From positions 1-64,000 of IMG/VR virus record IMGVR_UViG_3300031902_000003: 64,000 bases of DNA; one strand, given 5' to 3'. Every line of letters starts with the position of its first letter. Within the stretch, counting starts at the first letter, position 1. Made by a program: the position numbers and the translations under genes. The stretch comes from a virus (Duplodnaviria; Caudoviricetes). Of this stretch, positions 642 to 52,500 are shown in pieces. The notes below the pieces were generated by a model. The model saw only the letters and a list, made by a program, of their open reading frames with translations. It searched no databases and was not told the origin of the DNA.

Positions 642-1163
642 ATGTCTTCTTGGAATGTAGTGGATAATGGAAGCAGAGAATTTTTGCTAATACATTCTAG
701 CACTGCTATTCGTTTAAGTCCGTCTTCTAAACCAGACATCACAAAGCTTATGAGTGAAATGGAAGAAGCTGATGTTCCAATTTCATACACAAATGAGTTA
801 GAGGAAATTTACTTTACAAAGATCCCAGGTGGAAATCACGGAGATTATTGTTCAGACAGAATAAGACTTGCTGCTGATAAGAAGACAAGAGAAATTCTAG
901 GAAAGGTTCTAGTTCATGAACTTGCACATCATGTAGATGATCAGGAAGATATATGCTCAGATGATCGTCTTATGAAAGAAAAGAAGAAGAAAGCGAAGTA
1001 TATGTCAGACACATACGCGAAGAGAAATGTGGGTGAATATTTTGCTGTCGGCTTTGAAGTTTATTACTTCGGAACAGATAAAGAAAAGAGGCAAATGAAG
1101 AAGAAGAACCCTTATCTCCATAGGACGATTGAGGCCATTCACAAGAAATATAGTCGCATGTGA
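642..1163 (+). CDS. zincin metallopeptidase, anthrax lethal factor/Pro-Pro endopeptidase-like domain
   Basis: VLVHELAHHVD (HExxH) followed by YAKRNVGEYFAVGFEVYY, the downstream Glu motif typical of ATLF-like domains. Confidence 0.7.
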   Translation: MSSWNVVDNGSREFLLIHSSTAIRLSPSSKPDITKLMSEMEEADVPISYTNELEEIYFTKIPGGNHGDYCSDRIRLAADKKTREILGKVLVHELAHHVDDQEDICSDDRLMKEKKKKAKYMSDTYAKRNVGEYFAVGFEVYYFGTDKEKRQMKKKNPYLHRTIEAIHKKYSRM

Positions 1164-8780: not shown

Positions 8781-9707
8781 ATGGAAAAGCCAACTAGTAT
8801 GGCCGATGTTATTCTTGCAACTCATAAAGGTTGCATGGATGGATCGGGTTGTACAATCATGTTTCTTCGTGCTGGAGGTAAACTTGAGAATGTTCACTTC
8901 GTCGGTGCAGGAATGGTTGAGAGGTTTATCAAACGCGATCTTCCAAAGTTCGGAGATAAGTTTGTAATCTTTGCAGACATTGGTCTTTCTGGTCCAGATG
9001 ATGGTGAATCGTTTAGTTCAAGTCAGACAAAGTATGCAGACATTTTGGAGAAGCGTGGCAACTGTATTCTTATTGATCATCATATTACTTCTGAACATCT
9101 TAAGTCTAGAAGCTGGTGTGATGTAAGACAGGAATTCTGTGGCACAGAACTTCTTAGACAGTATCTTGGGCTAGAGGATGAAAGCTCAAAAGCTCTAGCT
9201 ATTCTTATTCAGGATCATGATCTATGGCTCATGAAGGATCCAAGATCAGTTGAACTTGCGGCATTCACAGTCTTTGTTGGTCAGGATATCTTTGTCGAAA
9301 GATTCCTCAATAGAGATGTTTCAAAGGAATTCTTTACTCCTCTTGAAGCAGAAATGATGGCGATCATGATTAGACGTCGCGATCAGTTTATTGCCGCTGC
9401 CATTAAGAAGGTCGTCATTAAGGATGTGACTTGGGGTAATGGAAACATCGCCAAGGTTGGGTACATTGTTTCTCCTGAGATGAACGTCTCTCTTCTTCTT
9501 GACACTCTTCTTACACAGCACACAGAACTTGATGTCGGTTGTCAGATCAATTTTGAGAAGGGTGCTGTTAGTTTGAGGTCACGTCGTGGGTACGATGTGT
9601 CAGAGATGGCTAAGTATTTCGGCGGTGGCGGTCATAAGGCAGCGTCAGGACATAAGATTTCAGACACGTTTGTTAATGATATCATAGAGGACATTCATGG
9701 CCATTGA
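8781..9707 (+). CDS. DHH/DHHA1 phosphoesterase
   Basis: HKGCMDG, FADI, IDHH, QDHDLW, SLRS, GGGGHKAASG. Confidence 0.9.
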   Translation: MEKPTSMADVILATHKGCMDGSGCTIMFLRAGGKLENVHFVGAGMVERFIKRDLPKFGDKFVIFADIGLSGPDDGESFSSSQTKYADILEKRGNCILIDHHITSEHLKSRSWCDVRQEFCGTELLRQYLGLEDESSKALAILIQDHDLWLMKDPRSVELAAFTVFVGQDIFVERFLNRDVSKEFFTPLEAEMMAIMIRRRDQFIAAAIKKVVIKDVTWGNGNIAKVGYIVSPEMNVSLLLDTLLTQHTELDVGCQINFEKGAVSLRSRRGYDVSEMAKYFGGGGHKAASGHKISDTFVNDIIEDIHGH

Positions 9708-10653
9708 AGGCAGACATCTAATCACAGGTAGTACATTTGACGACATCTATCAAGATCTTCTGTGGACTGTAAACAATAATCCACAACATGTTTGCAGTCC
9801 AAGAGGATCAAAGATTAAAGAGAATCTTGCAGTAACTCTTGTTCTTTCAAATCCAAGAGCACGACTTCTTTCTTGCGTGAAGAGGAATACGAATTATGGA
9901 TTTGCAGTTGGAGAGTTCCTCTGGTATTGGAATGGTAAGCGCGATCTAGAAACAATGTTGTACTATAACAAGAGGATGAAGGATTACTCAGATGATGGTG
10001 AGACTTTGAACTCTGCTTATGGATATAGATTGAAAGTGGAGAATGCTCAGTTCATTAATCCGAAGGGACAGTGGTCAACAGCAATTCACACCCTCGTAAA
10101 GGATCCAGATTCGAGGAGAGCTGTTCTTCATATCAATAGAGCTTCAGATCAACTTGTTGCAGACATTGAGGGTTCAAGTGATGTTCCTTGTACTCTTTCA
10201 CTTCAATTCTTCATTAGAGATAATAGACTCGATCTTCATGTTCATATGCGTTCAAATGATATCATGTGGGGATTGACGTACGATCTCTTTAGTTTCACTC
10301 TATTTCAAGAGTGTATGTTACTTGAACTTAAGGAATGGGAGAAGTTCAAGGATCTAAAGCTCGGTAAGTACTATCACACGGCAGGCTCTCTTCATATCTA
10401 CGAGAAGCATTTCGACCAAGCCTCAGAGATCTGTATGGAATATGGTCTTGGTGTTGATTACAAGCAACCACAGGAACCTCTGGTTAGCCTCGAGGACCTC
10501 GATAAGGTGAGTGATGTGGAAAAGGTCCTACGTTTAAAGCAGGGTCCTCTGTTCGTCTCTGGCTCAATTGAAGGAACTGAATTGTGGATGATTGATGAAT
10601 TGAAACATCACAGAGCTAAGAGAGACCTGGAAGCACTGAATAAGAAAGAATAG
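9697..10653 (+). CDS. thymidylate synthase-fold pyrimidine (probably dCMP) hydroxymethylase/modifying enzyme
   Basis: GEFLWY, DSRRAV, DVPCT (catalytic Cys), RSNDIMWGLTYD with Asp at the position of E. coli ThyA N177, YYHTAGSLHIYE. Confidence 0.85.
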   Translation: MAIEGRHLITGSTFDDIYQDLLWTVNNNPQHVCSPRGSKIKENLAVTLVLSNPRARLLSCVKRNTNYGFAVGEFLWYWNGKRDLETMLYYNKRMKDYSDDGETLNSAYGYRLKVENAQFINPKGQWSTAIHTLVKDPDSRRAVLHINRASDQLVADIEGSSDVPCTLSLQFFIRDNRLDLHVHMRSNDIMWGLTYDLFSFTLFQECMLLELKEWEKFKDLKLGKYYHTAGSLHIYEKHFDQASEICMEYGLGVDYKQPQEPLVSLEDLDKVSDVEKVLRLKQGPLFVSGSIEGTELWMIDELKHHRAKRDLEALNKKE

Positions 10654-10673: not shown

Positions 10674-11045
10674 ATGGAATTTCCGAAGTCAAACTACAGA
10701 GCAAGATGTATCAAGGTTGTAGATGGGGACACTCTAGATCTAGAAGTAGATATTGGTTTTCATCTAAGAGAGATTGGAAGGTTCCGAGTTCTTGGAATCG
10801 ATACTGCTGAGCTTCATGATAAGGATCCAGCTAAGAGGGCATTGGCTGTAAAGGCCAAGGAAACTGTTACAGAGCTTATGAAGACTCCAGTCGGCGTTGA
10901 ATGGCCACTTCTTGTAAGTACTGAAAAGGATCCTGATAACTTTGGTCGCTGGCTTATTAGTGTTCAGTTCGAGCAGAACTCATTACTTGTAGATCTTGGA
11001 CAGACTCTTATCGGGATGGGACTCGCTGTTCCATATGTGAAATAA
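10674..11045 (+). CDS. SNase/thermonuclease-like nuclease
   Basis: KVVDGDTL...FRVLGIDTAE...DNFGRWL...GLAVPY. Confidence 0.85.
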   Translation: MEFPKSNYRARCIKVVDGDTLDLEVDIGFHLREIGRFRVLGIDTAELHDKDPAKRALAVKAKETVTELMKTPVGVEWPLLVSTEKDPDNFGRWLISVQFEQNSLLVDLGQTLIGMGLAVPYVK

Positions 11046-11413
11046 TGAACAAGGACATGCTAGAAGATATCTTTGAGAGACAAAGAGTATTCATGGAGTT
11101 GTTGCGTGAGAATGATGTTCTCCCTGAATATCCAGTTGATTTGACCACGAAGCCAGGTCAACGACTAATAAGAGAGACGATGCTTAACACCATCGAAGAA
11201 CTCATGGAGGCTTCATTCTGTCTTCGTAATAAGGTTCATAAGTTGTCTGATGATAGATCAGTAGATCTTGATCACTACAAGGAAGAACTCGGAGATGCAT
11301 TGGCTTATTTCGTTGAAGCATGCATCTTCTCTGGATTTACTCCGAAGGAGATCTACGAAGAGTATTGCAGAAAGAATCAAATCGTGCAGGATAGAACAAG
11401 GAACGGGTACTAA
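11045..11413 (+). CDS. MazG-like / all-alpha dNTP pyrophosphatase
   Basis: IEELMEA...KEELGDALAYF (ExxE/ExxD helices) and YCRKN. Confidence 0.8.
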   Translation: MNKDMLEDIFERQRVFMELLRENDVLPEYPVDLTTKPGQRLIRETMLNTIEELMEASFCLRNKVHKLSDDRSVDLDHYKEELGDALAYFVEACIFSGFTPKEIYEEYCRKNQIVQDRTRNGY

Positions 11414-11415
11414 AC

Positions 11416-11706
11416 ATGAGTCAGATTGAACCGAATTTGGGTAAGGTTGTTGTGAAGGTTGAAGTAGAGAGTGAGAGAACTTCTGGTGGTCTTTACATTC
11501 CAGGGAGTGTTGTCTCTGACGGTGTCAAGAAGGCAACTGTTGTTGTCGTCGGCCCGCTCAGGAAGGTTGACGGTGAACTCACTGCTCTTCTTCTTAAGGA
11601 AGGTGACAGAGTTCTTGTTGATCCGCTTGGTGCAACCAAGATGAAGGTCGACGGTGTTGAGATGTTGTTAATGCGAGTTGAAGATATTCTAGCAAGAATT
11701 TCTTAA
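11416..11706 (+). CDS. groES: co-chaperonin GroES (Cpn10)
   Basis: IEPNLGKVVVK...TSGGLYIP...VVVGP...KEGDRVL...DGVEMLLMRVEDILA. Confidence 0.9.
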   Translation: MSQIEPNLGKVVVKVEVESERTSGGLYIPGSVVSDGVKKATVVVVGPLRKVDGELTALLLKEGDRVLVDPLGATKMKVDGVEMLLMRVEDILARIS

Positions 11707-11938: not shown

Positions 11939-12955
11939 ATGAAATTGATTCAAGAGGAAAGCTTTGTCTTTGACGATCTATTAATAGTACCACAATATAG
12001 TGATGTAGCATCAAGATCAGATGTAAGTACCAGAGTAGAGATTGCTGGAATGCAGTTAGAAATTCCAATCATAGCAGCAAACATGGACACGATTTGCGGA
12101 CCAAAAATGGCTAGAGCAATGCATGAGCTTGGCGGTTTAGGAATTATGCATCGTTTTGCTGAGGCAGATCAAAGAATAATATGGGTCGGAAATCTTAAAG
12201 ACGATGGTGTGTACGCAGTTCCATCTGTTGGTTTAGGTACACAAGCTCTTGACGAACTGAATGCTTTTTTCAACGCTGGTGCCGATGCTGTTTGCATAGA
12301 TGTTGCCCATGGAAATTGTAAGAAGATGCATGATCTTGTCGATGAATTTTATAGTAAGAGAGTTAATAATGATAGACATCTCATCATCGGTAACTTTACA
12401 AGCGTAAATGATAATTTCATTCCCAGTCATCTTGACAATATCACATGGAAGATTGGGATAGGTCCTGGCAGTGCTTGCGAAACAAGAGTAGTCGCTGGGG
12501 TAGGTATGCCTCAAGCATCTGCAATCATGAACTGCAGGAAGCATATGCCTTACATGTATGCTCCTCTCATAGCAGATGGCGGAATTAAGAAGCCGGCCGA
12601 TGTTGCAAAAGCAATTGGACTTGGCGCATCTGCTGTAATGGTTGGCGGATATATCGCATTCACCGATGAAGTTCCAGATTTAGGAAGGGAAACATATAGA
12701 GGAATGGCTTCTGGAGCAGCTCAGATTGAACACAGTGGAAGAATTTCAAATGGTGTTCCAGAGGGCAAAAGTTTTATGGCGTCAGGAGAAGCACCGGGTT
12801 CTGTTGTCGATAAGGTGAATGAGCTTGTTGGAGGATTAAGATCAGCAATGAGTTACACTGGGGCACATAATGTGTTAGAATATCAAAACAAGGTAATCTT
12901 TCAGCGTGTTACTCCAGCAACCTCAACGGAGAACATAGCACACTTCGGGAAATAA
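11939..12955 (+). CDS. IMP dehydrogenase / GMP reductase family, no CBS domain
   Basis: FDDLLIVP, PIIAANMDT, GGLGIMHR, IDVAHG, GIGPGSACETR, IADGGI, YRGMAS, GGLRSAMSYTG. Confidence 0.92.
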   Translation: MKLIQEESFVFDDLLIVPQYSDVASRSDVSTRVEIAGMQLEIPIIAANMDTICGPKMARAMHELGGLGIMHRFAEADQRIIWVGNLKDDGVYAVPSVGLGTQALDELNAFFNAGADAVCIDVAHGNCKKMHDLVDEFYSKRVNNDRHLIIGNFTSVNDNFIPSHLDNITWKIGIGPGSACETRVVAGVGMPQASAIMNCRKHMPYMYAPLIADGGIKKPADVAKAIGLGASAVMVGGYIAFTDEVPDLGRETYRGMASGAAQIEHSGRISNGVPEGKSFMASGEAPGSVVDKVNELVGGLRSAMSYTGAHNVLEYQNKVIFQRVTPATSTENIAHFGK

Positions 12956-13627
12956 ATGGAACAATCTCAATTTATAATCTATGGACTTGTAGATCCAAGA
13001 AATGGAGAATTGAGGTATGTTGGGCAATCATCACGTGGATTTGATCGTCCAATGAATCATTGGAATAGAAAGAGATGTCGTGAAGCAAATGATCACTGTC
13101 ATTGCTGGATTAAAAATGTTCTCAGTGATTCTTTGATACCAGAAATTGAAGTATTGCAGGAATGCACTTTCGAAGATGAATTAAGCGAAGCTGAAATATT
13201 TTGGATAGCTTATTTTAAAGCCATCGGTTGCAGGTTAACAAATGCAACTCTTGGAGGAGAGGGAACAAGGGGATTTGTTTCTCCAATGAAAGGAAAGAAA
13301 CATTCTGAAGAAACAAAGAAAAAGATATCTATCGCAAATCTTGGAAAAATTTCGTGGAATAAAAACAGAAGTACAAAATTGTCTCACGCAGAAGCATATT
13401 CCAAATCTGGCGCGAAACAAAGATTGAGAAAAGGAACATTTTCAGAAGAAACAAAAAGAAAAATCGGAGAAGCAAGTTCTAAAAAAATTCCGTGGAATAA
13501 AGGAAAAACACAGAAGGGTCATCCTCATACAAAAGAATTTAAAGAAATGATGAAAAATCGTATTGTTTCTGATGAGACTCGTCAAAGAATGAGATTATCT
13601 GCTAAGAAACGATGGGGAAAAGAATGA
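12956..13627 (+). mobile_element. free-standing GIY-YIG homing endonuclease with NUMOD3-like repeats
   Basis: IIYGL...YVGQS, EIFWI...LTN..GGEG, and repeated HSEETKKKIS/FSEETKRKIG/VSDETRQRM. AT-rich; ATGA overlap with dnaE. Confidence 0.88.
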
Positions 13628-16600
13628 TAAAGGAATTTGCAAGTCTTCACAACCACACACATTTTTCTACAATGGATGGTCTGTCTTTGCCGGAGGAATT
13701 AATCCTTGCTGCAAAAAATAAAGGATTACGATCAATAGCTGTGACAGATCACGGTACTTGTCATTCGCACGCAGACATTTTCTTATTCGGAAAAAAACAC
13801 AATGTAAAAGCAATCCTCGGTGTTGAAGCATATGTTATTCACGACATCGATGAATGGAAGCTTCTGAAGGATTCTGTTGGTCTTGATGATACTGAAGAGC
13901 GTGATTCAAACTCTGCTGGTGATGACGAAGCAAAGAAGTTATCTAAACAGTTGTATCGTAAAGGACATCTCGTTCTTCTTGCTTGTAATCGAGAAGGTCT
14001 CGCAAACATCTACCAGTTGACATACAAGGCTCATAAGCTTGGATTTTATTCCAAACCTCGTATGGATAAGAAGATGCTCAAGGAACATGCAACTGGCGTT
14101 GTTGCAACTTCTGCCTGTATGGGTGGAGTTGTTTCAAATAAGTGCTGGGACTTGAAGAATGGTCGTTGTGAGTGGAAAGATGTAGTCAATGAAGCAAGAG
14201 AGTACGACGACATCTTTGGGAGAGGAAGATTCTTTCTTGAGCTTCAATTCAATGAGAGTGAAGGTCAGACGTTCATCAATGATTGTCTTATCAAGATTCA
14301 TCAGGAAACTGGAATCCCATTGACTGTCACCACAGATTCTCATTATGTCAATGAGGATCAATGGAAGGCTCAAGAGTTTCTTTACATGCTTCGTTCTAAG
14401 AAGACTCTTGCAACTCGTGGTGACAAGTGGAACTTTGAAGTCAAGCAACTCTATATCAAGTCTCCAGAAGAAATGTGGCAGACATTTGAGAAGTTCGGAA
14501 AGACTGTTGACACTAAGATTGCACTTGAAGCCTTTCAGAACACTCTTCTCATTGATAGCCTAGTGGAATCCTTTGAGCCTGATACGCATCGACGGCTGCC
14601 CTCTCTGCCCTTCGAGGATCCATTCATGGAGATGGCCAAGAGAGCAGTGAAGGGTTTGAAAGGTCTTGGACTTGCAGATAAGGACGAGTACAAGCAAAGA
14701 CTTCTAAGAGAACTTAAGATTATTCAAGAGAAGGGATTCTCTAACTACTTCTTGATTACACAGAAGATTATCGAAGAAGCAAAGAAGTATATGCTTGTTG
14801 GTGAAGGTCGAGGTTCTTCTGCAGCTTCACTTGTATGTTATTGTCTTGGTATCACTGACCTTGATCCTATTGAACACGATCTCCTCTTTGAAAGATTCAT
14901 GGATCCTAGTAGAACTGAAGAGCCTGACATTGACGTTGACTTCGAAGATACTGAAGCTACAAAAGACATGCTTCGTAAGATGTTTGGAGAACAGAACGTC
15001 GCTTGCCTTTCTTCATATGGTACATTTCAAATCAAGGGATTGCTAAAGGACATCGGCAGAGTCTACGACCTTCCTGTGAAGCTCATCAATGATGCAAACA
15101 AGAAGATCGACAAAGAGTTAAAGGTTCTTTTCCACAATCAAGATAAGAGTACTCTTGTTATTAAGCTTGAAGACGTTGAAAGAGTTAGTGCTACATTCAA
15201 CCAACTCATCAAAGAATATCCAGTCGTTGGCGAACAACTTAAGAATCTATATGGAAGAAATCGTCAGGTAAGTCGCCACGCTGCAGGTGTGATCATCGGA
15301 GATAATCTTCCAGCAGAAACTGCACTCTTCGTACAGAAAGATCCCGATACAGGTAAACAAATCGTTCAGACATCATTCACCGAGGGTATTGTCAATAAGA
15401 ACGTTTCATCGATGGGATTCACCAAATTCGATATTCTTTCTATCACGACTCTTGAAGTTATACATTATGCTTTGAAGCAGATCTCTGAAAGAACTGGAAG
15501 ACCGTTACCAGAGCTTAGAGAAATGATTCGATCCAAGAATATGAACCTTAATGATCCAAAGATCATGAAGCACGTATTCTCCGATGGTAACTTCGCTGGT
15601 GTATTCCAGTTTACTGAAAAGGGAATCAGAAGATTTGCAAAGAGTGTAAAGCCAGATACATTCGTAGACATCTCTGCTATTGCTTCGATCTATCGTCCTG
15701 GTCCTCTTGCTGGTAAGTTCGATAAGCTTTATGCTCATAACAAGCATCATCCAGAAGATGTCACATATGAACATCCGATGTTAGAGGTGTTGCTGAAGAA
15801 GACAAGAGGATGCATCGTGTTTCAGGAACAGCTGATGCAGATTTGTAACTCTCTTGGTAAGATGTCTTGGAAGGACGTGAATGCCGTCCGTAAGGTTCTT
15901 CTCAAGAAAGACAAGAGCAAGAGCGAAGAGTTCCTAAAGTCAGAGAATGAAAGACTTGCTGGACTCTTTTTTAAAGGTTGCGAAGAGAATGGATATCCGA
16001 AAGATAAAGCAGAGAAGTTGTGGAAGGATCTGCTCGCATTCGGTGGTTACGGATTTAACAAGGCACACTCAGATGCTTACTCTGTTATGACGATGCAGTG
16101 TGCATACCTTGCAACGTATTATCCAATGGAATTCTATTCTGCTCTTCTTACCGTCGGCAAGTCTGGCGAGTTGCAGCAATACGTTGGAGATATTCAAAGA
16201 GCTGGGATAAAGATTCTTCCAGTAGATATCAACGCTAGCAAGGGTGCTCATGTCATTGAAGGTGATACAATTAGACTATCACTGAGATCTGTCAAGGGTG
16301 TTGGTCCGTCGGCCATCGAAAAGATTGTTGCGGCTCAGCCATACACAAGTTTCGTTGACTATATGGAGAGATCTGGCGTTGGTAAGACTGCAACTGAACC
16401 TCTCATTGCAGCTGGAGCATTCGACTCTATTCATCCCAACATGCATGATCTTGATATCAACTACTCAATCTACTGTGAGATTCCAGATTATAAGAGGAAG
16501 ACAAAGAAGAAGAATGATCCCGAGGCAATTTGTTTCGATGACTTCGTTAAATTCTTTGATAGACAAGATGTATATGAAGATTATAATCTGCATCAAAAGA

Positions 16601-17064
16601 TGCAATTTGAAATTGAATTGTTTGACTTCTCTCTTAGAGGAACTCCATTTGATGTATTGAATAGAGAATCTAAGATTGTTTCATATCTTGAAAGTAAGAT
16701 CTCACCATCATCAGCAATTGGGTATGGTATTGATTTGGCTGATGTTTTGGCTACTGATCACGAGATAATCTGTCTTCCTGTTGCTGTAAAGAGAATCTTT
16801 GAAAAGGTACAAAGAAACGGACAGATGATGGCATTCTTAACTCTTGCTACTTATGATGGAGCAGAATTCGATACTGTATGCTTTGGTACAATCTGGAAAT
16901 GGGTTAGACCAGCAGTCAAGAAGGGTTCTGTTTACATGGCGACTTTCAATAGAAAGCTTGGAGAAGATTCTGAGAACTTGGTCGTTGGCAAGCCAGGGTT
17001 TGCTCACTCCATGAATTCTGCTCAAGGCTACATGGTCAACGTAGATTCACTGGGGATTTCATAA
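13624..17064 (+). CDS. dnaE: DNA polymerase III alpha subunit (family C)
   Basis: PHP motifs HNHTHFS/TDHG/TDSHY, GRGSSAASL, PDIDVDF, GVFQF, YRPGPL, FQEQ, YGFNKAHS, C-terminal OB fold. Confidence 0.96.
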   Translation: MIKEFASLHNHTHFSTMDGLSLPEELILAAKNKGLRSIAVTDHGTCHSHADIFLFGKKHNVKAILGVEAYVIHDIDEWKLLKDSVGLDDTEERDSNSAGDDEAKKLSKQLYRKGHLVLLACNREGLANIYQLTYKAHKLGFYSKPRMDKKMLKEHATGVVATSACMGGVVSNKCWDLKNGRCEWKDVVNEAREYDDIFGRGRFFLELQFNESEGQTFINDCLIKIHQETGIPLTVTTDSHYVNEDQWKAQEFLYMLRSKKTLATRGDKWNFEVKQLYIKSPEEMWQTFEKFGKTVDTKIALEAFQNTLLIDSLVESFEPDTHRRLPSLPFEDPFMEMAKRAVKGLKGLGLADKDEYKQRLLRELKIIQEKGFSNYFLITQKIIEEAKKYMLVGEGRGSSAASLVCYCLGITDLDPIEHDLLFERFMDPSRTEEPDIDVDFEDTEATKDMLRKMFGEQNVACLSSYGTFQIKGLLKDIGRVYDLPVKLINDANKKIDKELKVLFHNQDKSTLVIKLEDVERVSATFNQLIKEYPVVGEQLKNLYGRNRQVSRHAAGVIIGDNLPAETALFVQKDPDTGKQIVQTSFTEGIVNKNVSSMGFTKFDILSITTLEVIHYALKQISERTGRPLPELREMIRSKNMNLNDPKIMKHVFSDGNFAGVFQFTEKGIRRFAKSVKPDTFVDISAIASIYRPGPLAGKFDKLYAHNKHHPEDVTYEHPMLEVLLKKTRGCIVFQEQLMQICNSLGKMSWKDVNAVRKVLLKKDKSKSEEFLKSENERLAGLFFKGCEENGYPKDKAEKLWKDLLAFGGYGFNKAHSDAYSVMTMQCAYLATYYPMEFYSALLTVGKSGELQQYVGDIQRAGIKILPVDINASKGAHVIEGDTIRLSLRSVKGVGPSAIEKIVAAQPYTSFVDYMERSGVGKTATEPLIAAGAFDSIHPNMHDLDINYSIYCEIPDYKRKTKKKNDPEAICFDDFVKFFDRQDVYEDYNLHQKMQFEIELFDFSLRGTPFDVLNRESKIVSYLESKISPSSAIGYGIDLADVLATDHEIICLPVAVKRIFEKVQRNGQMMAFLTLATYDGAEFDTVCFGTIWKWVRPAVKKGSVYMATFNRKLGEDSENLVVGKPGFAHSMNSAQGYMVNVDSLGIS

Positions 17065-17298
17065 ATGAAAATACATTGGTGGGAAGATTCTGGCAGTAGA
17101 TACACTTGCCATGAAAATGTAATGGGAGCGAGCTTCGATGAATCAATAAGAGGCTATCTTGTAAGAGAAAGTAATTCGAGATGGTTCTACGTTGTCATTG
17201 GACAAGATGAAAAGGTCGGACCGTTTGAACAATTGCTGGTGGCTCGTAAAGCATTAGAGGCTGCTTTGCATGCTGAACCTGTAGATACTAATGACTGA
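17065..17298 (+). CDS. hypothetical protein
   Basis: Abuts the dnaE stop; in-operon. Confidence 0.6.
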   Translation: MKIHWWEDSGSRYTCHENVMGASFDESIRGYLVRESNSRWFYVVIGQDEKVGPFEQLLVARKALEAALHAEPVDTND

Positions 17299-17307
17299 GA
17301 GGATATA

Positions 17308-18450
17308 ATGAGAGAGATTTGTCTTGTAGTTCCCACGATCAGAGAGAATTCCATGAAGGATTTTATTGATCGCTGGCGTGATATTGGTTTGTTCGAGGCT
17401 GTTGATTTGATGGTTATGGAAGATAATCCTACCAAGACCTTTACACTTCCATCGCTTGTATCAAAGAGTGAGCAGGAGGCTGCAGAAAAGGGACAGGCAA
17501 CTGATAGGAATAGCTATCACTTGTCATGGGAAGACATTGCCGCCGACCTCGGAGAGAACGAGTGGATCATTCCTAGACGGTCCGATACAGTTAGGAGCTT
17601 TGCATATTGGAAGGCATGGAAGCTTGGTTACAAGTTTATCATGACTCTCGATGATGACTGTTATCCTTGTGGTGAGAAGGACGGCGTAACGTACACTGGA
17701 CAGGCATTTGTCGGTGAGCACCTACGCCAACTCACTCAGAGAACGAAGTGGTTCAATACGCTGAATTCCGTTAAGCCAAGAGGCATTCCATTCTTTAATC
17801 ATGGTGTCTGTGACAATGTCATTGTCAATCATGGTCTGTGGACGAATGTTCTTGACTATGATGCTCCGACTCAGCTTGCGGCTCCTGTTGCCGAGAAGTT
17901 CTCATTCGACAGTAAGGTCATTCCCAATGGTCTTTACTTTCCGATGTGTGGAATGAATGTCATGTGGAAAGCAGAGGCGACTCCTCTTATGTATCATCTA
18001 CTTATGGGAAAGAGGAAGTCTGCATTTCCTGGCATGTCGACAGACAAGGATGGTCTCGTTAAGCTTCCATTTGATCGCTTCGGAGATATCTGGGCTGGTA
18101 TCTTGATGAAGAAGGTTGCAGATCATCTTAGACTCTCTGTTGCGACTGGCATGCCATATATTCGTCATGAGAGAGCTTCAAATCCTTTTACCAATCTTAA
18201 GAAGGAAGCAAACGGAATTGAGGTCAACGAAGGATTCTGGATGTACGTAGATAAGATTGCCTTGAATGGCTCTCACGAACTAGATGTCATCTACGAGCAG
18301 ATTGGTCTCTGGTTTCAAGGAGAATGCGGAGATGAGACTGTTCCGATGATCACTCAGGTATTCAAAGAGTTTGCAGAGCATGAAGAATACTTTGTACTAC
18401 TTGGGAAGGCTATGGTACAATGGGCAAGGTTGTTCCGAAAGGATAAGTGA
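17308..18450 (+). CDS. reversibly glycosylated polypeptide (RGP) / UDP-arabinopyranose mutase-like protein (GT75, GT-A fold)
   Basis: [74 protein letters not shown]. These align motif by motif with recalled plant RGP motifs (DDDC, [58 protein letters not shown]). Confidence 0.9.
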   Translation: [380 protein letters not shown]

Positions 18451-19016
18451 TGTACGATCAAAAGATTTATATCTTTGACTCTCCTGACGGAACTGGAAAG
18501 ACTGAGATCGCAAAGGAACTTTCAAGAAGGATTCAGGTTCCTTATTTTAAGATGACAACTGAACATGAGAACTGGAGGAAGGGAACGTTCATTGACGCTC
18601 TTCGTTTTGACCAGACTTATCTTGCTCAGTTCCTGAAGCAGACTAGACACTCAGCAATTATCGATAGAGCATTTCCAGCTGAATGGGTATACTCAAGAGT
18701 GTTTGGTCGTATGACAGATCATGATGTTTTGAATAAGGTTGATGCTGACTTTGCAGAACTTGGTGCAAGAATCATCATGCCTCTTCGTAGAGATTATACT
18801 AACACTAGAGATGACGAAGTAGTTCCAAGAGAGAAATATCAGGCCATTCACAACATGTATCTTCAGTTCTCTTCATGGACAAAGTGCAGCGTCGTTCAGC
18901 TTTACGTTGATGATTTCGAAAATAAACTTTCAGATGAAATCCATCAAATCTATCAAGGTCTTGATGATGTCGATTACTTTAAATGTAAAAGAGTAAGCAT
19001 AAGAGGAAAATTGTGA
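18447..19016 (+). CDS. P-loop nucleotide monophosphate kinase (dTMP kinase-like)
   Basis: IFDSPDGTGKT, IIDRAFPAEWVYSRVFGR. GTGA overlap with the RGP-like gene. Confidence 0.85.
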   Translation: MMYDQKIYIFDSPDGTGKTEIAKELSRRIQVPYFKMTTEHENWRKGTFIDALRFDQTYLAQFLKQTRHSAIIDRAFPAEWVYSRVFGRMTDHDVLNKVDADFAELGARIIMPLRRDYTNTRDDEVVPREKYQAIHNMYLQFSSWTKCSVVQLYVDDFENKLSDEIHQIYQGLDDVDYFKCKRVSIRGKL

Positions 19017-19279
19017 AATTCATTCATAGAATTAGAATCATCCTTGCAAACTTTTTCTTCATGTTATCTGTTTGGTTAGAGCCAGAGATTGATTACAACA
19101 AAGAGTATCTTGAACAAGTGGAAAGTGAAGTTGACAAGATGCTTCTTGACAAATCAATCAAAACAACAGTAAAAGGATTCTCACCCATTTCAACAATTAA
19201 TAAACATTCAACCACGACAGATCAAGACATGGATGACATGGTTCGCGGGTTTCTTATTGGAAAGGAAGATAAAAAGTGA
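19013..19279 (+). CDS. hypothetical protein, hydrophobic N-terminus
   Basis: 4-nt overlaps with both neighbours. Confidence 0.65.
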   Translation: MKFIHRIRIILANFFFMLSVWLEPEIDYNKEYLEQVESEVDKMLLDKSIKTTVKGFSPISTINKHSTTTDQDMDDMVRGFLIGKEDKK

Positions 19280-20412
19280 GAGTTGGATTGTCATTTTGGG
19301 GGTTTCAAGGAGATGTTAAGATCGGGCCAGGTGGAGAAGAACTTTCAACTCCAGATGGCAATGCGACATACACTTGGTCTCTCATCTGGGAAATGCAGAA
19401 GAGAGGTCACACTGTTTATGCAATGCAAGAAGACAGAGACTGGCACGGGTTTAGACGCTGGGGTTCTGGATTGTTCGGTTCATTCTCACAAGAGAAGAGA
19501 ACTTCTGCATACACAAATATCAAGAACACATTTGGTTCTTCTGAAATTCTTCCTAATCTTGATGTTCTTTTGATAGAGTGGAGATTCCCGATTCCTGGCA
19601 GGAATTGTGAAATCAACAAAGAAACTGGAGAGATTCTATTTCCAGAGCATGAATCTCAAAGAGGATTGCTTGACGAGAAGTATCAACGTGATCTCTTCAG
19701 GCAGACTCAGATTCTTCATCACTACAAACAATCTCACACGAGAATTATATTCTGGGATTTGGATCACAAACTCACGAAGGCAGATGAAATTAGATGGATG
19801 CCCGATGCAATCTTTGAAACCTCCACGTCACCTCTGGAGCTATCAAAGAAGAGAGTTAGTGTAGAACCACCATTCAATATCCCTGACCTTCTACAGCACC
19901 CCACGATCCCCCAAGACCCCAATAGAAAGTTGGTGTATATTGGTAGTCGTTATGAGAGGGACGATATCATTGATGAATGGATTAAGCCAGTCTCTGAAGA
20001 GTACCAGAATCAAGTTGAGTTTCATGGCAAGTGGGATGATGAAGCCAAGGTTAGATGGCCCAATATTAAGATGGGACAGCGTTGTACCGTCAGAGATTTC
20101 CAGGGATTATACGCTTCAGCATGCGCAGTTCCTCTTCTTGCAAAGAAGAGTTATCTAGAGACTGGATTCATTACTCCAAGAGTTTGGGAAGCTTTGTTAT
20201 TCGGTACGCTTCCAGTAGGACTAGGTACTGCTAAGGGGATTGAGAAGTATACGACTCTTATTGCAAACGATTCCAGTAACATGAAAGAGATTGTGAATGA
20301 ACTTTCTAAGCAGCCAATAGAAAGAAGAGGTACGCTTAGAAGAGACATGGTCGAAAGACTGGAGTTCATGGATGCAAAATACTTTGTTGACAAGATTGAA
20401 GAAGTTCTTTAA
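19276..20412 (+). CDS. GT-B glycosyltransferase (DNA-base glycosyltransferase / CgeB-like)
   Basis: N-terminal RVGLSFWGF...EMQKRGHTVY, IFWDLD, LVYIGSRYER, FHGKW, Y...AVP......Y..GFITPRVWEALLFGTLPV. Confidence 0.75.
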   Translation: MRVGLSFWGFQGDVKIGPGGEELSTPDGNATYTWSLIWEMQKRGHTVYAMQEDRDWHGFRRWGSGLFGSFSQEKRTSAYTNIKNTFGSSEILPNLDVLLIEWRFPIPGRNCEINKETGEILFPEHESQRGLLDEKYQRDLFRQTQILHHYKQSHTRIIFWDLDHKLTKADEIRWMPDAIFETSTSPLELSKKRVSVEPPFNIPDLLQHPTIPQDPNRKLVYIGSRYERDDIIDEWIKPVSEEYQNQVEFHGKWDDEAKVRWPNIKMGQRCTVRDFQGLYASACAVPLLAKKSYLETGFITPRVWEALLFGTLPVGLGTAKGIEKYTTLIANDSSNMKEIVNELSKQPIERRGTLRRDMVERLEFMDAKYFVDKIEEVL

Positions 20413-20758: not shown

Positions 20759-20940
20759 TGGATATCATGGTCCTGATTTTCCTTGGTATACTTATTCTTG
20801 GTTTGAGAATCGCGTATGTCAAGGAAAGAAGACGCTGGGAAACAGACGACACCATAGACTTCGATGATTGGAGAGGTGGAGATCCTTACCAGGAAGTTCC
20901 TGAAGACGCAAAGAGGATTGATCTTGAGACCAAGCTTTGA
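20758..20940 (+). CDS. small membrane protein
   Basis: N-terminal hydrophobic helix; TAATG coupling. Confidence 0.6.
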   Translation: MDIMVLIFLGILILGLRIAYVKERRRWETDDTIDFDDWRGGDPYQEVPEDAKRIDLETKL

Positions 20941-21364
20941 ATCTATTTGGATGAACCTCGCTGTAACTCTGGCAAAGAGGAGCACATGCAAACGTGCTCA
21001 TGTCGGATCAGTTGTTGTGTCCGAAGACAATCAGAGAGTTCTCGCAATAGGATATAACGGGAACTACAAGGGTGGACCGAATCATTGTGATTCAGATGAA
21101 CCGGGACTTTGTGGTTGTCTACACTCTGAAGAGAACTCTCTAATCAAGTTGAACTACAACGATTCATCTAGAAAGAAGATCTATACGACGACATCACCAT
21201 GTGTGCAGTGTGCCAAGAGAATCATTAATGCTAGCATAGACGAAGTGATCTATTTAAATGAGTATAGGAAGACGGAAGGTTTAGAACTTCTTAGATCATC
21301 AGGAGTTTATGTCAGGAAGATATCTCAAGGGGATATACAAATCGAAGAAGACAAAGCTGAGTGA
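20924..21364 (+). CDS. dCMP deaminase
   Basis: STCKRAHVG, IGYNG, CLHSEEN (HxE), SPCVQCAKRI (PCxxC). Probable TTG start at 20924 after gagg. Confidence 0.92.
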   Translation: MRPSFESIWMNLAVTLAKRSTCKRAHVGSVVVSEDNQRVLAIGYNGNYKGGPNHCDSDEPGLCGCLHSEENSLIKLNYNDSSRKKIYTTTSPCVQCAKRIINASIDEVIYLNEYRKTEGLELLRSSGVYVRKISQGDIQIEEDKAE

Positions 21365-23371: not shown

Positions 23372-24001
23372 ATGAAGATTGTAGAGGCGTCAGCAGAGCT
23401 GCTGAGCATTACAGATATGCCTGCTGAACTGATAGAGAAGGCTGCAAGAGTTTGTTACAAGAGTGAGGAACAGATTGCTCCAGGTTCTGCAGACAGATTG
23501 ATTAAGAGTTGTATGAACAAACATCACATGTCTATCATTGAACATGGAGTTGCTTCATTTAGAATCATTTGTGATAGAGGTATCTCACATGAGATTGTTA
23601 GACATCGTATCGCAAGTTACTCACAAGAGTCTACGAGATATTGTAACTACGGTAAGGATAAGTTTGGAAATGAGATCACTGTCGTTGAACCTCCTGGTCT
23701 TGACTGGGAAACATCTAGATCTCATTGGGTGTCAGCGATGCTGAATGCAGAGACATCTTACTTTAAGTTGCTAGAGGCTGGCTGTACTCCACAGATTGCT
23801 CGTTCAGTTCTTCCAACATGTCTAAAGACAGAGTTGATTATGACAGCAAACTTTAGAGAGTGGAGACACTTTATCGATCTCAGAGAAGCCAAGACAGCTC
23901 ACCCACAAATAAGACCATTAGCTACGCAAATTAGAAAGATACTTATTGAGAGATGCCCAGCTGTATTCGGAGATCTGATAGGAGTTGAAAATGGGACTTG
24001 A
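23372..24001 (+). CDS. thyX: FAD-dependent thymidylate synthase
   Basis: HMSIIEH, RGISHEIVRHRIASYSQESTRY, QIARSVLP, ANFREWRHFIDLR, AHPQIR. Confidence 0.95.
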   Translation: MKIVEASAELLSITDMPAELIEKAARVCYKSEEQIAPGSADRLIKSCMNKHHMSIIEHGVASFRIICDRGISHEIVRHRIASYSQESTRYCNYGKDKFGNEITVVEPPGLDWETSRSHWVSAMLNAETSYFKLLEAGCTPQIARSVLPTCLKTELIMTANFREWRHFIDLREAKTAHPQIRPLATQIRKILIERCPAVFGDLIGVENGT

Positions 24002-24630: not shown

Positions 24631-25074
24631 ATGAAAAAGAGATCTATCAAAGAATACTTGGAATCAAGAGCTGAAAAGCAAAAGTTTGCTATCTCTGAGT
24701 TCGAAAGAACCTTGATTGTATACAACATTCCAATGCCTCCTTGCTATTCTGGAGTGGGACCAGGTTGGCTTCCAGTTGTGTCTGAGATGTTTCAGAAGAT
24801 GATTGCTGCTGGGTGGGACAGGAAGTTGGAACAAATCAAAGAGAAGTTCTGTCAACTCAGAGTCTATACTTCACAGAGTCAGTATGAGATGAAGGATGGA
24901 AAATTTGTCAAAGAAGGTGAGTTCATTAAGATAAACAAACTTGGTGAGATCATTGATGAGGCAGTAAAGAAGTGTGACGAGCTATGTGAAGATTGTGGCA
25001 AGGAAAGAGAGTTGAAGGGTTGCAGAACAGGGGCTGCATGGTGTAATGCTTGTTTGAAAGATGGTTATAAATGA
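24631..25074 (+). CDS. conserved phage hypothetical protein
   Basis: GPGWLP...QIKEKFCQLRVY...CEDCG pattern. Confidence 0.7.
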   Translation: MKKRSIKEYLESRAEKQKFAISEFERTLIVYNIPMPPCYSGVGPGWLPVVSEMFQKMIAAGWDRKLEQIKEKFCQLRVYTSQSQYEMKDGKFVKEGEFIKINKLGEIIDEAVKKCDELCEDCGKERELKGCRTGAAWCNACLKDGYK

Positions 25075-25628
25075 GACTCATTGTAGATCAAGATGAAATT
25101 TTGTGCAGGTGGGTCGATAGAATTCTCGAATGGTATAACGAGGATTATAAGACTGAGTTTACAAGACATGATGTAAAGAATTATTGGGACATGGAGAACA
25201 TTCTAGGTCCACAGGGAAAACCGTTCATCAGGTCTTGTATTCGTTATCCAGAACTTTATAGGGATCTTAATGAGGTTTCTGGAGCAGTCAAGGGCATGAT
25301 GAAGCTCAAGGATCTTGGTCATGACGTGATCATCGCCACCGCTGTTCCGCATCACGGTGGATTTGCGTACCATGGAAAACTTGAATGGCTAAGAAGAAAC
25401 ATGCCAGGGTTTCCTCTGAATAACTTTGTAGCAATTCAGAGGAAGGATCTTCTCAATGGAGATCTTCTTCTTGATGATGGTCCTCATAACATTGAAGCAT
25501 GGAACAAGACTGGAAGGACGTCTGTTGTATTTGATGCACCGTGGAACAAGGAATGCAAGGCTACGCATAGAGTAAGAAACTGGGAAGAATTTGTTAACCT
25601 TGTTGAAACACTTAGTGAAAAGAAGTAG
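25071..25628 (+). CDS. 5'(3')-deoxyribonucleotidase (HAD, NT5C family)
   Basis: IVDQDEIL, IATA, KLEWLRRN, LLDDGPHN, VFDAPWN. Confidence 0.88.
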   Translation: MRLIVDQDEILCRWVDRILEWYNEDYKTEFTRHDVKNYWDMENILGPQGKPFIRSCIRYPELYRDLNEVSGAVKGMMKLKDLGHDVIIATAVPHHGGFAYHGKLEWLRRNMPGFPLNNFVAIQRKDLLNGDLLLDDGPHNIEAWNKTGRTSVVFDAPWNKECKATHRVRNWEEFVNLVETLSEKK

Positions 25629-49532: not shown

Positions 49533-52500
49533 TTATCCTTCAGCCAAGTATGGCGGAATTTGATCTAAATAGATATAACCCCAAGCTCCGAGTGAGTATT
49601 GAAACTGTCCGGTTGTACTATCAAGAGTTTCGAGACCATTAGCTGAGCCAGAGTTTGTTCTTGTTACATATACCATTGCATTCCCTGGTTTATAGCCAGC
49701 TGGCATCGTAAATATTGGATCTCCGGCAGTTGGTGCACCAGTTGGTAGATAGACAACCCCTCTGAAGTGTACGAAACCAAGGGCGTCCTTCATGTATTGT
49801 GCGCTTGACAATGACGCCCAAGCTCCAGAATATGTAAAATTCTGCCAGGCTTGTGTAGGGCCTATCTTTCCAGATTTATCAACATATAGTTTCTCAGTGT
49901 ATGTTCCACCGATTCCTGTACCAACAGATAGAAGCTTTGCACCTGTGTTTACTGACGCGTCACCGATTACTGTTCCGAGCTTGACAGCAACGTCCGTTGA
50001 TGCAACTCCAAGATCTGACATGAGAGTTAGAGATGCAGATACGGCACCTAGAGAACCAGATTTGTCAACGTATAGTTTTTCTACATCTGCATTTCTGACG
50101 CTTACAAGCTTAGCACCGTTCGAATTCCATACATTTATTGAATTGACAATCAGTCCCTTTGCCGTAGTTGAATCTGCAACTTCAGTACCAAGTCTCATGC
50201 CAGCAGAAGTTGATCCCCATTGAATGCCTGCTAGCGAACCAGCATTCATGTAGATCGAGTATGATACGTTTACTAAAGGAGCTACTGCGCCACCAGCACT
50301 AAATTGACAGATATTAGAACCTTGCGAAGACAACATAACCCCACCAGTTCCAGAAGCATACAAGATAAGCTGTGATGGATGAGTGATTCCTCCATCTTTA
50401 TCAACGTAGATTTTCTCAGTTCCATTATTCTGAATGCTAAGTATCTTCGCTCCGACTGTAGAAAGTGTGTTTCCAGTGTTTATAATATTTGCAACGGCAG
50501 TAGAACTATTTGCTACACCACCTTGAATTCTGCTATTCGTAGCTCCATACATTGCTCCTTGCGCAGAATCAAATGTAACCCATGAAGCATTATTCCACGA
50601 TAATCTTGTCCCTACAGAACTGTCTATACTTAGACTACCAAGCGACGCTCCAGATCCAAGAACGAATCCACCGCTAGCTCCTTTGCTGAATGAAGCATAT
50701 TCTGTTTCAGATCCACTTATTCCAGATCTAATTGATAGCAGCTTTGCACCTGTGTTTACTGAAGCGTCACCGATTACTGTTCCGAGCTTGACAGCAACAT
50801 CCGTAGATCCAGTTCCATTTGATGAAGCTGCAATAAATTGTCCATCTCTCATTACCTTAACTGCGTCTTGTGTTCCAATCTTTAGACGATATGCTGGTTG
50901 AAAGAAATCTAGATTTGTAGGTGCTGAGAAGTTGAACGCAGGGATACTTGAAGTAACCATCGCCGCAGTGCTTACTGTGAAACTCATCAAGTCTGCTACG
51001 CCGTAAGTATTTGAATTTTGTAAGAATGCCATTCCCCAGTTTTCGCATACAACACCCGGAGACGTGTTTGAATAATTTCCAAAGGCAACTACGCCAAGTC
51101 CAATTGGTTGGTACCAGTAACCTCCCCACCCAGAAGATCCACCAGTTATAAGCATTCCAATTCTATTAGTTTCAACTGGAACTGTGACCTTAGCTACAGG
51201 AAGTGTTAATGAGGCTCCCTTTGATATTGAAAAATACTCTACTTCAGATCCACCAATACCAGTTCTAACAGAGAGAAGTGGAGCTGTGCTTGCAGAAACG
51301 TTAGCTATTGAAGTTCCAACCTTCACAGCGATATCTGCTGATCCTGTTGCCATTGCAGAAACTACAGTTGCAAGACCTCCGCCAGACCCAGCTTGCATTG
51401 TAACACCAGTCGGTGTTGCCCCGATCATATTAACGCCGTAATCCATTCTAGCGCCATATGTACTGTTTAGTGTTGCTATAGCAACTCCACCATGACCAAC
51501 CATTGCACCGAATGGTTTGAATGCCATATGCTCAACGTAAGTTCCACCATTGGCCATCCCCGCACCAACTGATAACAGTTTCGCGGCTGAATTAAGAGAA
51601 GCATCAGCAACTCTCGTGCCAAGTTGAACAACCACGTCTGACGCACCCGTTCCATTTCCACCCTGAACATAAAGTTTACCGCCGGAATTTAGTGTTAGAC
51701 CAGGGAGTAAATCTAAACCAGTAGATGCAGCTGCTGCCAATGCATAGTTTGTCGTAGATGGAGTAAAACTTCCAGCAGCGATGTTCAGCCAAAGCGCAGA
51801 GGCTCCGATATTTGCATTATAAGAACCAACAGCAGCTGCAACCCCAGGCGTTAATGAACTTCCAGACGTTGGAGATCCAGAAACTATAAGTGCATATGGA
51901 CTCTTGATTACACCAGAAGAACTTAGAATAAGAGTTGTTCCACCCTGATATTGGATGTCTAGAATATTTCCATTGTTACTTGCTTGAGCAGCTTCAAATA
52001 GAAATGCTGGTGATGCCAATCCAGAATATGAATTCGATCCCTGTGTAAATTTTAAGCTTCTAGCATATGACTTCATGGCAAAGAAACCATCGCCGATACC
52101 TAACTGACTTCCTCCACCAGAATACCAACCACCAAAGTTAAGACCAGTATCACCAGCACCGTTATTGTAAATTGTGATTCCAGCAACATGAGTCTGAGTT
52201 TTACAATCGATGTTTAGAATACCGCCACCAAGTGGACCTCGGCTGACATAGACATACTCTGTTTCTCCGGCGCCAAGTCCTAGACCAGTTCTGACAGAAA
52301 AAAGCTTAGATGTTGTACTCGTCGCACCATCTATTATCTTCGTTCCAACTTTCACAGCAACATCGGCTGCCGCCAATGTTCCAGTTGTGTAACCAGATAT
52401 TATAGAACCAGAGTTCCAGGATCTTATTTCTACTGGAGACGCGTAACCTTGAACATATAAAGCGCTGCTATCAAAATAAATCTTATCGAATGCTCCCCAT

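Follow-up and report, generated by a model that had tools for sequence, protein, structure and literature searches.

We analysed a 64-kb window of DNA, the first part of a 75.8-kb IMG/VR virus record (IMGVR_UViG_3300031902_000003), in which an operon downstream of dnaE (17308-20412) encodes a GT75/RGP protein, a thymidylate-kinase-like nucleotide kinase, a short open reading frame (ORF) and a GT-B glycosyltransferase. The best reading of these genes and their neighbours, and on sequence evidence probably the right one, although far from secure, is that an uncultured phage with a DnaE-type polymerase has furanosyl-5-hydroxymethylcytosine in its DNA. CheckV estimates the completeness of the record at ~37%, which implies a genome of ~200 kb. 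A fuller version of this claim seems to us evenly balanced between right and wrong, namely that a large, worldwide clade of ~200-kb phages with hundreds of metagenomic relatives replaces all of its cytosine with 5-(furanosyloxymethyl)cytosine by means of a metal-dependent GT75 enzyme, the sugar being galactofuranose (Galf), arabinofuranose (Araf) or of the L-fucofuranose/L-galactofuranose (L-Fucf/L-Galf) type. The original prediction had described four genes coupled by 4-nt overlaps just downstream of dnaE, and three GTGA start/stop overlaps do link the four ORFs, with a conserved 77-aa ORF separating dnaE from the first of them.

The product of the first gene matches the RGP family over its full length (PF03214; 126.8 bits against a cut-off of 23.8, E 1.5e-36), residues 3-378 being aligned to positions 5-339 of the 342 in the profile. 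Its matches in the PDB are MtdL (7yua/7xpr; 4e-16), a GT75 GDP-L-galactose/fucose pyranose mutase with a solved structure (PMC9937993), and the UDP-arabinopyranose mutase 8cid (5.8e-15), to which a profile search gave E 5.5e-25 over the full length. When the HMMER alignment was set against the published MtdL structure (PMC9937993), every residue that is essential in MtdL had a counterpart. D87 and R90 of MtdL correspond to D93 and R96, the DXD motif (D109-D111), which with H287 binds Mn2+, to a DDD motif (D115-D116-D117), the reversibly glycosylated nucleophile R159 to R158 and D195 to D183, and R257 (phosphate-binding), D260, H287 and R289 have the same numbers in both proteins. None of these residues varies among 39 close homologues, and they vary little in an alignment of 141 family representatives, where R158 is present in 139 and D260 in all. 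Invariance of every mutase catalytic residue indicates selection for catalysis, and we predict that the protein is an NDP-sugar pyranose/furanose mutase with an intact active site. The earlier claim of a near-complete set of RGP/GT75 motifs, DDD included, was therefore confirmed.

The accompanying 'plant-type' and arabinose labels were not supported by this comparison. The protein is a mosaic in which PTIR and CGMN are plant-like and S92-D93 is MtdL-like (plants have D-S); at the CGMN position AtRGP2 has G216 where MtdL has S228 (PMC9937993). Of three MtdL base-selectivity positions, one is plant-like (P9), one resembles neither enzyme (P41) and one is MtdL-like (S92). An equivalence of N40 with MtdL N42, the basis of a 'GDP-like' reading, was ruled out because the 141-sequence alignment places N42 at P41 and the conserved Asp (MtdL D40) at D39; the N-terminus of MtdL gave no alignment with the window protein by sequence. 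The closest relatives of the protein are prokaryotic and viral, and its mixture of plant-like and MtdL-like residues means that the substrate is not readable from sequence. Besides making UDP-L-Araf from UDP-L-Arap, plant GT75 enzymes produce UDP-D-Galf from UDP-D-Galp (PMC9937993). A ubiquitous bacterial metabolite is therefore plausible as substrate, and UDP-Galf is at least as plausible a donor as UDP-Araf. UDP-xylose or arabinose genes were not found, and searches of the 76-kb record and two related fragments yielded neither an SDR epimerase/decarboxylase nor a sugar nucleotidyltransferase. Given this negative result and the activity of plant GT75 enzymes on UDP-Galp, UDP-L-arabinose specifically was rejected as an unsupported substrate.

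The last gene of the operon encodes a GT-B glycosyltransferase for which a relation to Glyco_trans_1_2 and T4 beta-glucosyltransferase (BGT) had been suggested. This suggestion held in part, as the protein barely clears the Pfam model Glyco_trans_1_2 and aligns to BGT profiles in hhalign (probability 81%, E 1.2e-5, 213 columns), with a BLASTP match to BGT (E 0.001) over 78 residues that include the ITxRVWE segment of BGT. BGT residues D100, R195, R269 and E272 align with E101 (a conservative change), R228, R302 and E305, all of which are invariant in 40 homologues; BGT R191 aligns with Y226, which R225 adjoins. We take D100 to be the catalytic base of BGT, with 1nzd as the D100A entry, and R191, R195, R269 and E272 to be its UDP contacts. 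A structure predicted from 40 homologues (pLDDT 92.3) has the GT-B fold and the size of BGT, also resembling CgeB-family and other GT4 enzymes, and the nearest neighbours in a protein-language-model atlas include clusters dominated by PF09198 (T4-Gluco-transf). No match was found in GenBank phages (megablast; tblastn at E <= 1e-3) or, by phmmer, in the PDB, and a BLASTP comparison with the RB69 p046:47 arabinosyltransferase, which covered its N-terminal half (RB69p047), returned no significant match (best local E 0.18). From these alignments and the structural model, we read the protein as a remote BGT-like enzyme. Searches with PF00534 and PF00535 found no further glycosyltransferase in the 76-kb record, nor was one found in two related fragments, and the search for flippase, polymerase or lipid-carrier genes was also negative. 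That no other glycosyltransferase, SDR epimerase or nucleotidyltransferase was found is consistent with a single host donor being remodelled by the mutase.

The identity of the modified base is indicated by a ThyA homologue (9697-10653), whose best matches in the PDB are the CMP hydroxymethylase MilA (1.8e-34) and T4 dCMP hydroxymethylase (4e-16). Aligned with E. coli ThyA, T4 gp42 and RB69 p048, it has the catalytic Cys in PC(T), RSND, an Asp at the position of E. coli N177, a retained Asp169 and, as in T4 gp42, Asp at position 143; RB69 p048 has D169N in the same alignment. This substitution (E. coli ThyA numbering) is diagnostic of 5-hydroxy-dCMP synthases and occurs in all of those tested (Lee et al. 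2026, PMC13326640). The window and four related loci keep Asp169, and the same hydroxymethylase signature is present in L011, L012 and L013. As Asp at the N177 position indicates a cytosine substrate and excludes uracil, the homologue is predicted to be of the T4 gp42-like dCMP hydroxymethylase type rather than the 5-hydroxycytosine (5hoC) type, and to synthesize 5-hydroxymethyl-dCMP (5-hm-dCMP). The ThyX enzyme in the window supplies dTMP, so that the ThyA homologue would be redundant for dTMP and free for another reaction. This residue signature, in combination with ThyX, dCMP deaminase, NT5C and a MazG-like NTPase, leads to 5-hydroxymethylcytosine (5hmC, or hmC) as the predicted base, and 5hoC was rejected because Asp169 is retained.

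Among cultured phages, the closest ThyA homologue is gp319 of Bacillus phage G (L005, JN638751 225484-242428), with 35% identity and the same RSND and Asp-at-N177 signature. Near this gene are an annotated alpha-glucosyltransferase (gp313), a glucose-1-phosphate thymidylyltransferase (gp309), a HAD phosphatase (gp310), a dCMP deaminase (gp317) and a DnaE-like polymerase (gp329), and phage G may also glycosylate hmC.

The kinase gene lies close to the GT-B gene and its product matches the PHROG thymidylate-kinase family. It has a P-loop nucleoside monophosphate (NMP) kinase fold closest to thymidylate kinase (TMK) and YorR, its best fold matches (3kb2, 4s35) coincide with those published for the DLP3 (gp78) and RB69 cluster kinases, and it aligns with RB69p045 over 168 residues (BLASTP 7e-7). 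This homology makes it the counterpart of the 'nucleotide kinase' found beside the first glycosyltransferase in three unrelated families of hypermodifying phages, and we predict that it phosphorylates 5-hm-dCMP. The deoxynucleoside monophosphate (dNMP) phosphorylation assays of PMC13326640 were performed with gp1-type dNMP kinases and not with the RB69/DLP3 cluster kinases.

Further nucleotide genes of the window fit a replacement of deoxycytidine (dC). The MazG-like NTPase is a candidate dCTPase-like enzyme analogous to T4 gp56; its Pfam matches (dUTPase_2 1.8e-4, MazG 2.2e-3) are both below cut-off and its BLASTP match to RB69 gp56 is weak (E 0.012). The DHH/DHHA1 phosphoesterase probably acts in nucleotide salvage. 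Judged by these annotations, the MazG-like NTPase, dCMP deaminase, NT5C and ThyX are a T4-style accessory set for dC replacement.

The proposed pathway would begin with the MazG-like NTPase, which together with DHH and nuclease salvage would funnel host dC nucleotides to dCMP. The ThyA homologue would convert dCMP to 5-hm-dCMP, the TMK-like enzyme would phosphorylate this product, and a host NDP kinase would complete the triphosphate for incorporation of hm-dC by DnaE, with dCMP deaminase and ThyX sustaining the supply of dTTP. In parallel, the GT75/RGP enzyme would convert a host NDP-pyranose into the NDP-furanose by a mechanism involving Mn2+ at D117/H287 and a glycosyl-Arg158 intermediate. 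The GT-B enzyme, with E101 as probable general base, would then transfer the furanosyl group to the hydroxymethyl of hmC in duplex DNA, and the expected benefit would be resistance to restriction enzymes and CRISPR nucleases. Mutases of this kind favour the pyranose at equilibrium, and a furanose-specific transferase would therefore have to draw it towards the furanose; translational coupling of the genes would suit such a demand.

Conservation of the gene order across related phages supports a functional linkage of the module. Searching IMG/VR with the RGP protein led to seven loci with the order DnaE, small ORF, RGP, kinase, small ORF and GT-B, which also occurs in five further metagenomic contexts found through homologues of GT-B or RGP; with near-identical contigs collapsed there are ten distinct contexts, and the order DnaE-RGP-kinase-GT is present in all ten. 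The GC content was 43-62% in the four loci measured. An RNR-DHH-ThyA block usually lies upstream of the module, its order being kept in L011, L012, L013 and L018. A large protein collection contains >460 GT-B and >120 RGP homologues at >=50% identity, and at least 23 contigs of >=20 kb, many of ~190-205 kb, have identical sizes in the two homologue lists, which is indirect evidence of GT-B/RGP linkage. Contigs of ~197 kb with the module (P0108/P0202 and P0195) have been deposited in NCBI as metagenome-assembled genomes of an 'Acidiferrobacterales bacterium' and a 'Candidatus Thorarchaeota archaeon', and these are probably phage genomes binned with cellular ones.

A second type of association was detected in a 35-kb Mu-F/ParB-type phage (L017:8004-11631), where an RGP homologue with 38% identity and intact catalytic residues lies two genes 5' of a TET-associated glycosyltransferase (TAGT, PF20691). 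Here GT75 may have become linked to DNA glycosylation a second time and independently; the examined part of this locus, which runs to the contig end, contained no TET/JBP gene.

Several observations weigh against a furanosylated hmC. In a divergent member of the same clade (L018; 10001-11077, P0249), the gene preceding the kinase and GT-B encodes a full-length RGP in which DDD is replaced by ADT, R257 by G, H287 by N, R289 by V and PTIR by STKS. This protein is predicted to be catalytically dead and resembles the plant class-2 RGPs, such as AtRGP5, that are inactive yet retained (PMC9937993); its degeneration means either that mutase activity is dispensable in this phage or that the RGP has a second role; it may also hint at a mutase-transferase complex that channels an unstable donor. 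The survey of RGP neighbourhoods, while revealing the ten contexts with kinase and GT-B, also placed the RGPs of other phages in different company. Among GenBank phage records, an RGP homologue (37% identity) occurs only in that of the 595-kb uncultured phage LR756511 (L015:10447-15130); genes for a methyltransferase, two sulfotransferases and an F5/8 type C (discoidin) domain protein lie around it there, which looks like a cluster for a sulfated or methylated glycan and not for nucleotide metabolism. In a 63-kb phage (L016:5297-13856), the homologue lies among four GT2s, three methyltransferases, a hexapeptide acyltransferase and GT1s in a block directly upstream of the terminase and portal genes, and in a bacterial contig it belongs to a Wzy-type polysaccharide cluster. 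For the window itself, the mixture of P9, P41 and S92 means that no nucleotide carrier is assignable to the mutase. PF09198 gave no match to the GT-B protein at E <= 0.01, and the structural match to T4 BGT is tied with those to TarM, PimA and BshA. We infer DNA as the acceptor from genomic context and remote homology, and a preference of the GT-B enzyme for a furanose donor is a prediction. Finally, the phage is uncultured, its record is incomplete and the reading is computational throughout. The original prediction of a mutase feeding a DNA glycosyltransferase on modified cytosine with a dedicated kinase is supported by the active site, the ThyA signature, the RB69p045 homology, the BGT relation and the ten contexts, and is weakened by the degenerate RGP of L018 and the glycan-type neighbourhoods of RGPs in other phages.

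The alternative that survives best, though we judge it unlikely, is an ordinary T4-like pyranosyl (e.g. glucosyl) hmC, for which the GT-B enzyme would use host UDP-glucose and the RGP would be an auxiliary protein, either a non-catalytic partner or self-glycosylating. BGT, the relative of this GT-B, uses UDP-glucose, and L018 has a degenerate RGP beside an intact GT-B, just as inactive AtRGP5 is retained in plants (PMC9937993); but invariance of the mutase catalytic residues in the window and the 39 close homologues and linkage of RGP to GT-B in 10 of 10 contexts argue against this alternative.

More doubtful is the proposal that the RGP is a second, GT-A-fold DNA or sugar transferase that builds a disaccharide on hmC with the GT-B enzyme, comparable to the gentiobiosyl-hmC of T2/T6 or the di- and trisaccharides of RB69/DLP3. 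GT75 enzymes possess a GT-A DXD site and autoglycosylate, which is genuine glycosyltransfer (PMC9937993), hypermodifying phages often have two or three transferases (PMC13326640), and the distant RGP of the 35-kb phage lies near a TAGT gene. Against these points, the sole known acceptor of GT75 enzymes is their own Arg and all characterized active members are mutases (PMC9937993), and the window protein keeps both Arg158, the acceptor, and D260, its base.

Slightly less probable still is that the operon glycosylates a target other than DNA (virion proteins, host envelope polymers or a small molecule), any active hmC pathway being independent of it. The polysaccharide-type clusters that house bacterial and some phage RGP homologues, and the likeness of the predicted GT-B structure to CgeB-family and other GT4 enzymes, could be explained in this way. 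This explanation is opposed by the position of the operon among genes for replication and nucleotide metabolism, with dnaE on one side and dCMP deaminase on the other, by the homology of its kinase to that of the RB69 DNA-modification cluster, by the alignment of BGT catalytic and UDP-contact residues in the GT-B and by the failure to find flippase, polymerase, lipid-carrier or further transferase genes in the record. Least probable of all is a base other than 5hmC, whether 5hoC (as in RB69, DLP3 and RL38J1) or 5-hydroxymethyluracil: the best PDB match of the ThyA homologue is MilA, as for 5hoC synthases (PMC13326640), and the kinase-GT adjacency is like that of 5hoC clusters, but the tested 5hoC synthases are all D169N (PMC13326640) whereas Asp169 is kept in the window and four related loci, and the Asp at the N177 position excludes a uracil substrate.

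The features on which the preferred furanosyl-hmC reading draws are listed below with their neighbours. The 77-aa ORF has counterparts at the same position in L006, L007, L010 and L011 (30-33% identity by tblastn), and the 88-aa ORF has weak similarity only, to small ORFs in the same place in L012 and L013; neither matched a family in Pfam, PHROG or NCBIfam, and NCBIfam had no model for the RGP protein, the kinase or the GT-B enzyme.

Features of the 64-kb window relevant to the proposed DNA modification
Feature	Coordinates	Strand	Evidence
DHH/DHHA1 phosphoesterase	8781..9707	+	Pfam DHHA1 1.3e-6; phrog_4771 2.4e-25; translational overlap with ThyA homologue
ThyA-family enzyme, predicted 5-hm-dCMP synthase	9697..10653	+	PF00303 1e-23; dCMP hydroxymethylase signature
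All-alpha MazG/dUTPase_2-like NTP pyrophosphohydrolase, candidate dCTPase (T4 gp56 analogue)	11045..11413	+	phrog_12184 2.9e-16; phrog_173 1.8e-6
DnaE-type replicative DNA polymerase	13612..17064	+	phrog_405 1.6e-251
77-aa ORF, conserved, no family match	17065..17298	+	tblastn to related loci
GT75/RGP protein, predicted Mn2+-dependent NDP-sugar pyranose/furanose mutase	17308..18450	+	PF03214 1.5e-36
Thymidylate-kinase-like nucleotide kinase, predicted (5-hm-)dNMP kinase	18447..19016	+	PHROG thymidylate-kinase family; RB69p045 homology
88-aa ORF, hydrophobic N-terminus, poorly conserved, possibly not a gene	19013..19279	+	no family match
GT-B glycosyltransferase, remote T4 beta-glucosyltransferase relative, predicted 5-hmC-DNA transferase	19276..20412	+	BLASTP, hhalign, predicted structure
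dCMP deaminase	20864..21364	+	PF00383 4.4e-18; phrog_174 2.3e-41
ThyX flavin-dependent thymidylate synthase	23372..24001	+	PF02511 1e-50
NT5C-type 5'-deoxynucleotidase	25071..25628	+	PF06941 2.2e-33

Other genes of the window were noted in passing. The nucleotide-metabolism block also holds a GMP-reductase/IMPDH-family gene (11939-12955) and a GroES-like gene (11416-11706), and a NUMOD3 homing endonuclease gene (12956-13627, plus strand) lies directly 5' of dnaE and overlaps its start. A 173-aa ORF (642-1163, plus strand) matches the Pfam ATLF family (anthrax lethal factor zinc-metallopeptidase) with E 7e-10, above the cut-off, and also M91/M90 peptidases; on these matches its product is a small phage metallopeptidase. 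On the minus strand, a 1061-aa ORF (49533-52718) had no PHROG match at E <= 1e-5.

If the furanosyl-hmC reading is true, an undescribed DNA base would be added to the known phage hypermodifications. GT75 enzymes, so far associated with plant cell walls and two actinomycete antibiotics, would gain a third biological role and their first in nucleic-acid modification, and at least three routes to furanosylated DNA would be known in phages (UDP-Araf made de novo, a Glf-type mutase and a GT75 mutase). Protection of such DNA from many restriction enzymes and Cas nucleases would be expected, and sequencing may miscall it or recover too little of it, which matters for metagenomes that contain this abundant clade. 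The enzymes themselves would be useful reagents, as an hmC-specific furanosyl transferase and a cofactor-free generator of NDP-furanose.

The original prediction spoke of a 'different enzyme set', a description that is too broad because only the mutase is new: a ThyA homologue, a kinase and a GT-B are the known design of T4, RB69, DLP3 and RL38J1, and RL38J1 already pairs that design with a Glf-type mutase (PMC13326640). In T4, glucosyl-hmC is produced by the gp56 dCTPase, gp42 dCMP hydroxymethylase, gp1 dNMP kinase, Cd dCMP deaminase and alpha- and beta-glucosyltransferases. The window follows the same logic with mostly the same kinds of enzyme (a gp42 signature, an all-alpha NTPase, a dCMP deaminase, a kinase and a BGT-related GT-B), but inserts a GT75 mutase before the kinase and GT-B, so that a furanose is predicted in place of glucopyranose; its kinase is TMK/YorR-like and not gp1-like, its polymerase is DnaE where T4 has a family B enzyme, and its dTMP comes from ThyX. 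RB69 and DLP3 share with the window a homologous TMK-like kinase beside a GT-B, with the same fold neighbours, in a cluster beside the DNA polymerase gene. Their DNA carries arabinofuranose on 5hoC (PMC13326640; PMC6024577), whereas a furanose on 5hmC is predicted here, and they make UDP-D-Araf de novo from ribulose-5-phosphate with an isomerase, a kinase/uridylyltransferase and a phosphatase, in place of which the window has the mutase. A full-text literature search found nothing that linked GT75, RGP, PF03214, arabinopyranose mutase or pyranose mutase with phages or DNA modification.

In the Rhizobium phage RL38J1 (Pootjesviridae; Lee et al., NAR 2026, PMC13326640), as in the window, a mutase is proposed to feed DNA glycosyltransferases, and both have a TMK-like kinase (RL38J1_214), a GT-B and a ThyA homologue. 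The RL38J1 mutase is, however, of the FAD-dependent Glf/UGM type, with a fold and mechanism different from those of GT75, and its ThyA homologue, which has D169N, belongs to the 5hoC synthases and leads to a sugar in ether linkage to the C5-OH, whereas the window retains D169 and a hydroxymethyl group is predicted. The complete GT75 catalytic constellation of the window protein is that of MtdL and Hyg20 (GDP-L-Gal/GDP-L-Fuc) and of plant UAM/RGP (UDP-L-Ara, UDP-D-Gal; PMC9937993), but the known members serve antibiotic or plant cell-wall biosynthesis and none is viral or tied to nucleic-acid modification. The new element is the combination of a GT75 mutase with hydroxymethyl rather than hydroxyl chemistry; in concept the system extends, by one increment, what is known from T4 and from Lee et al. 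2026.

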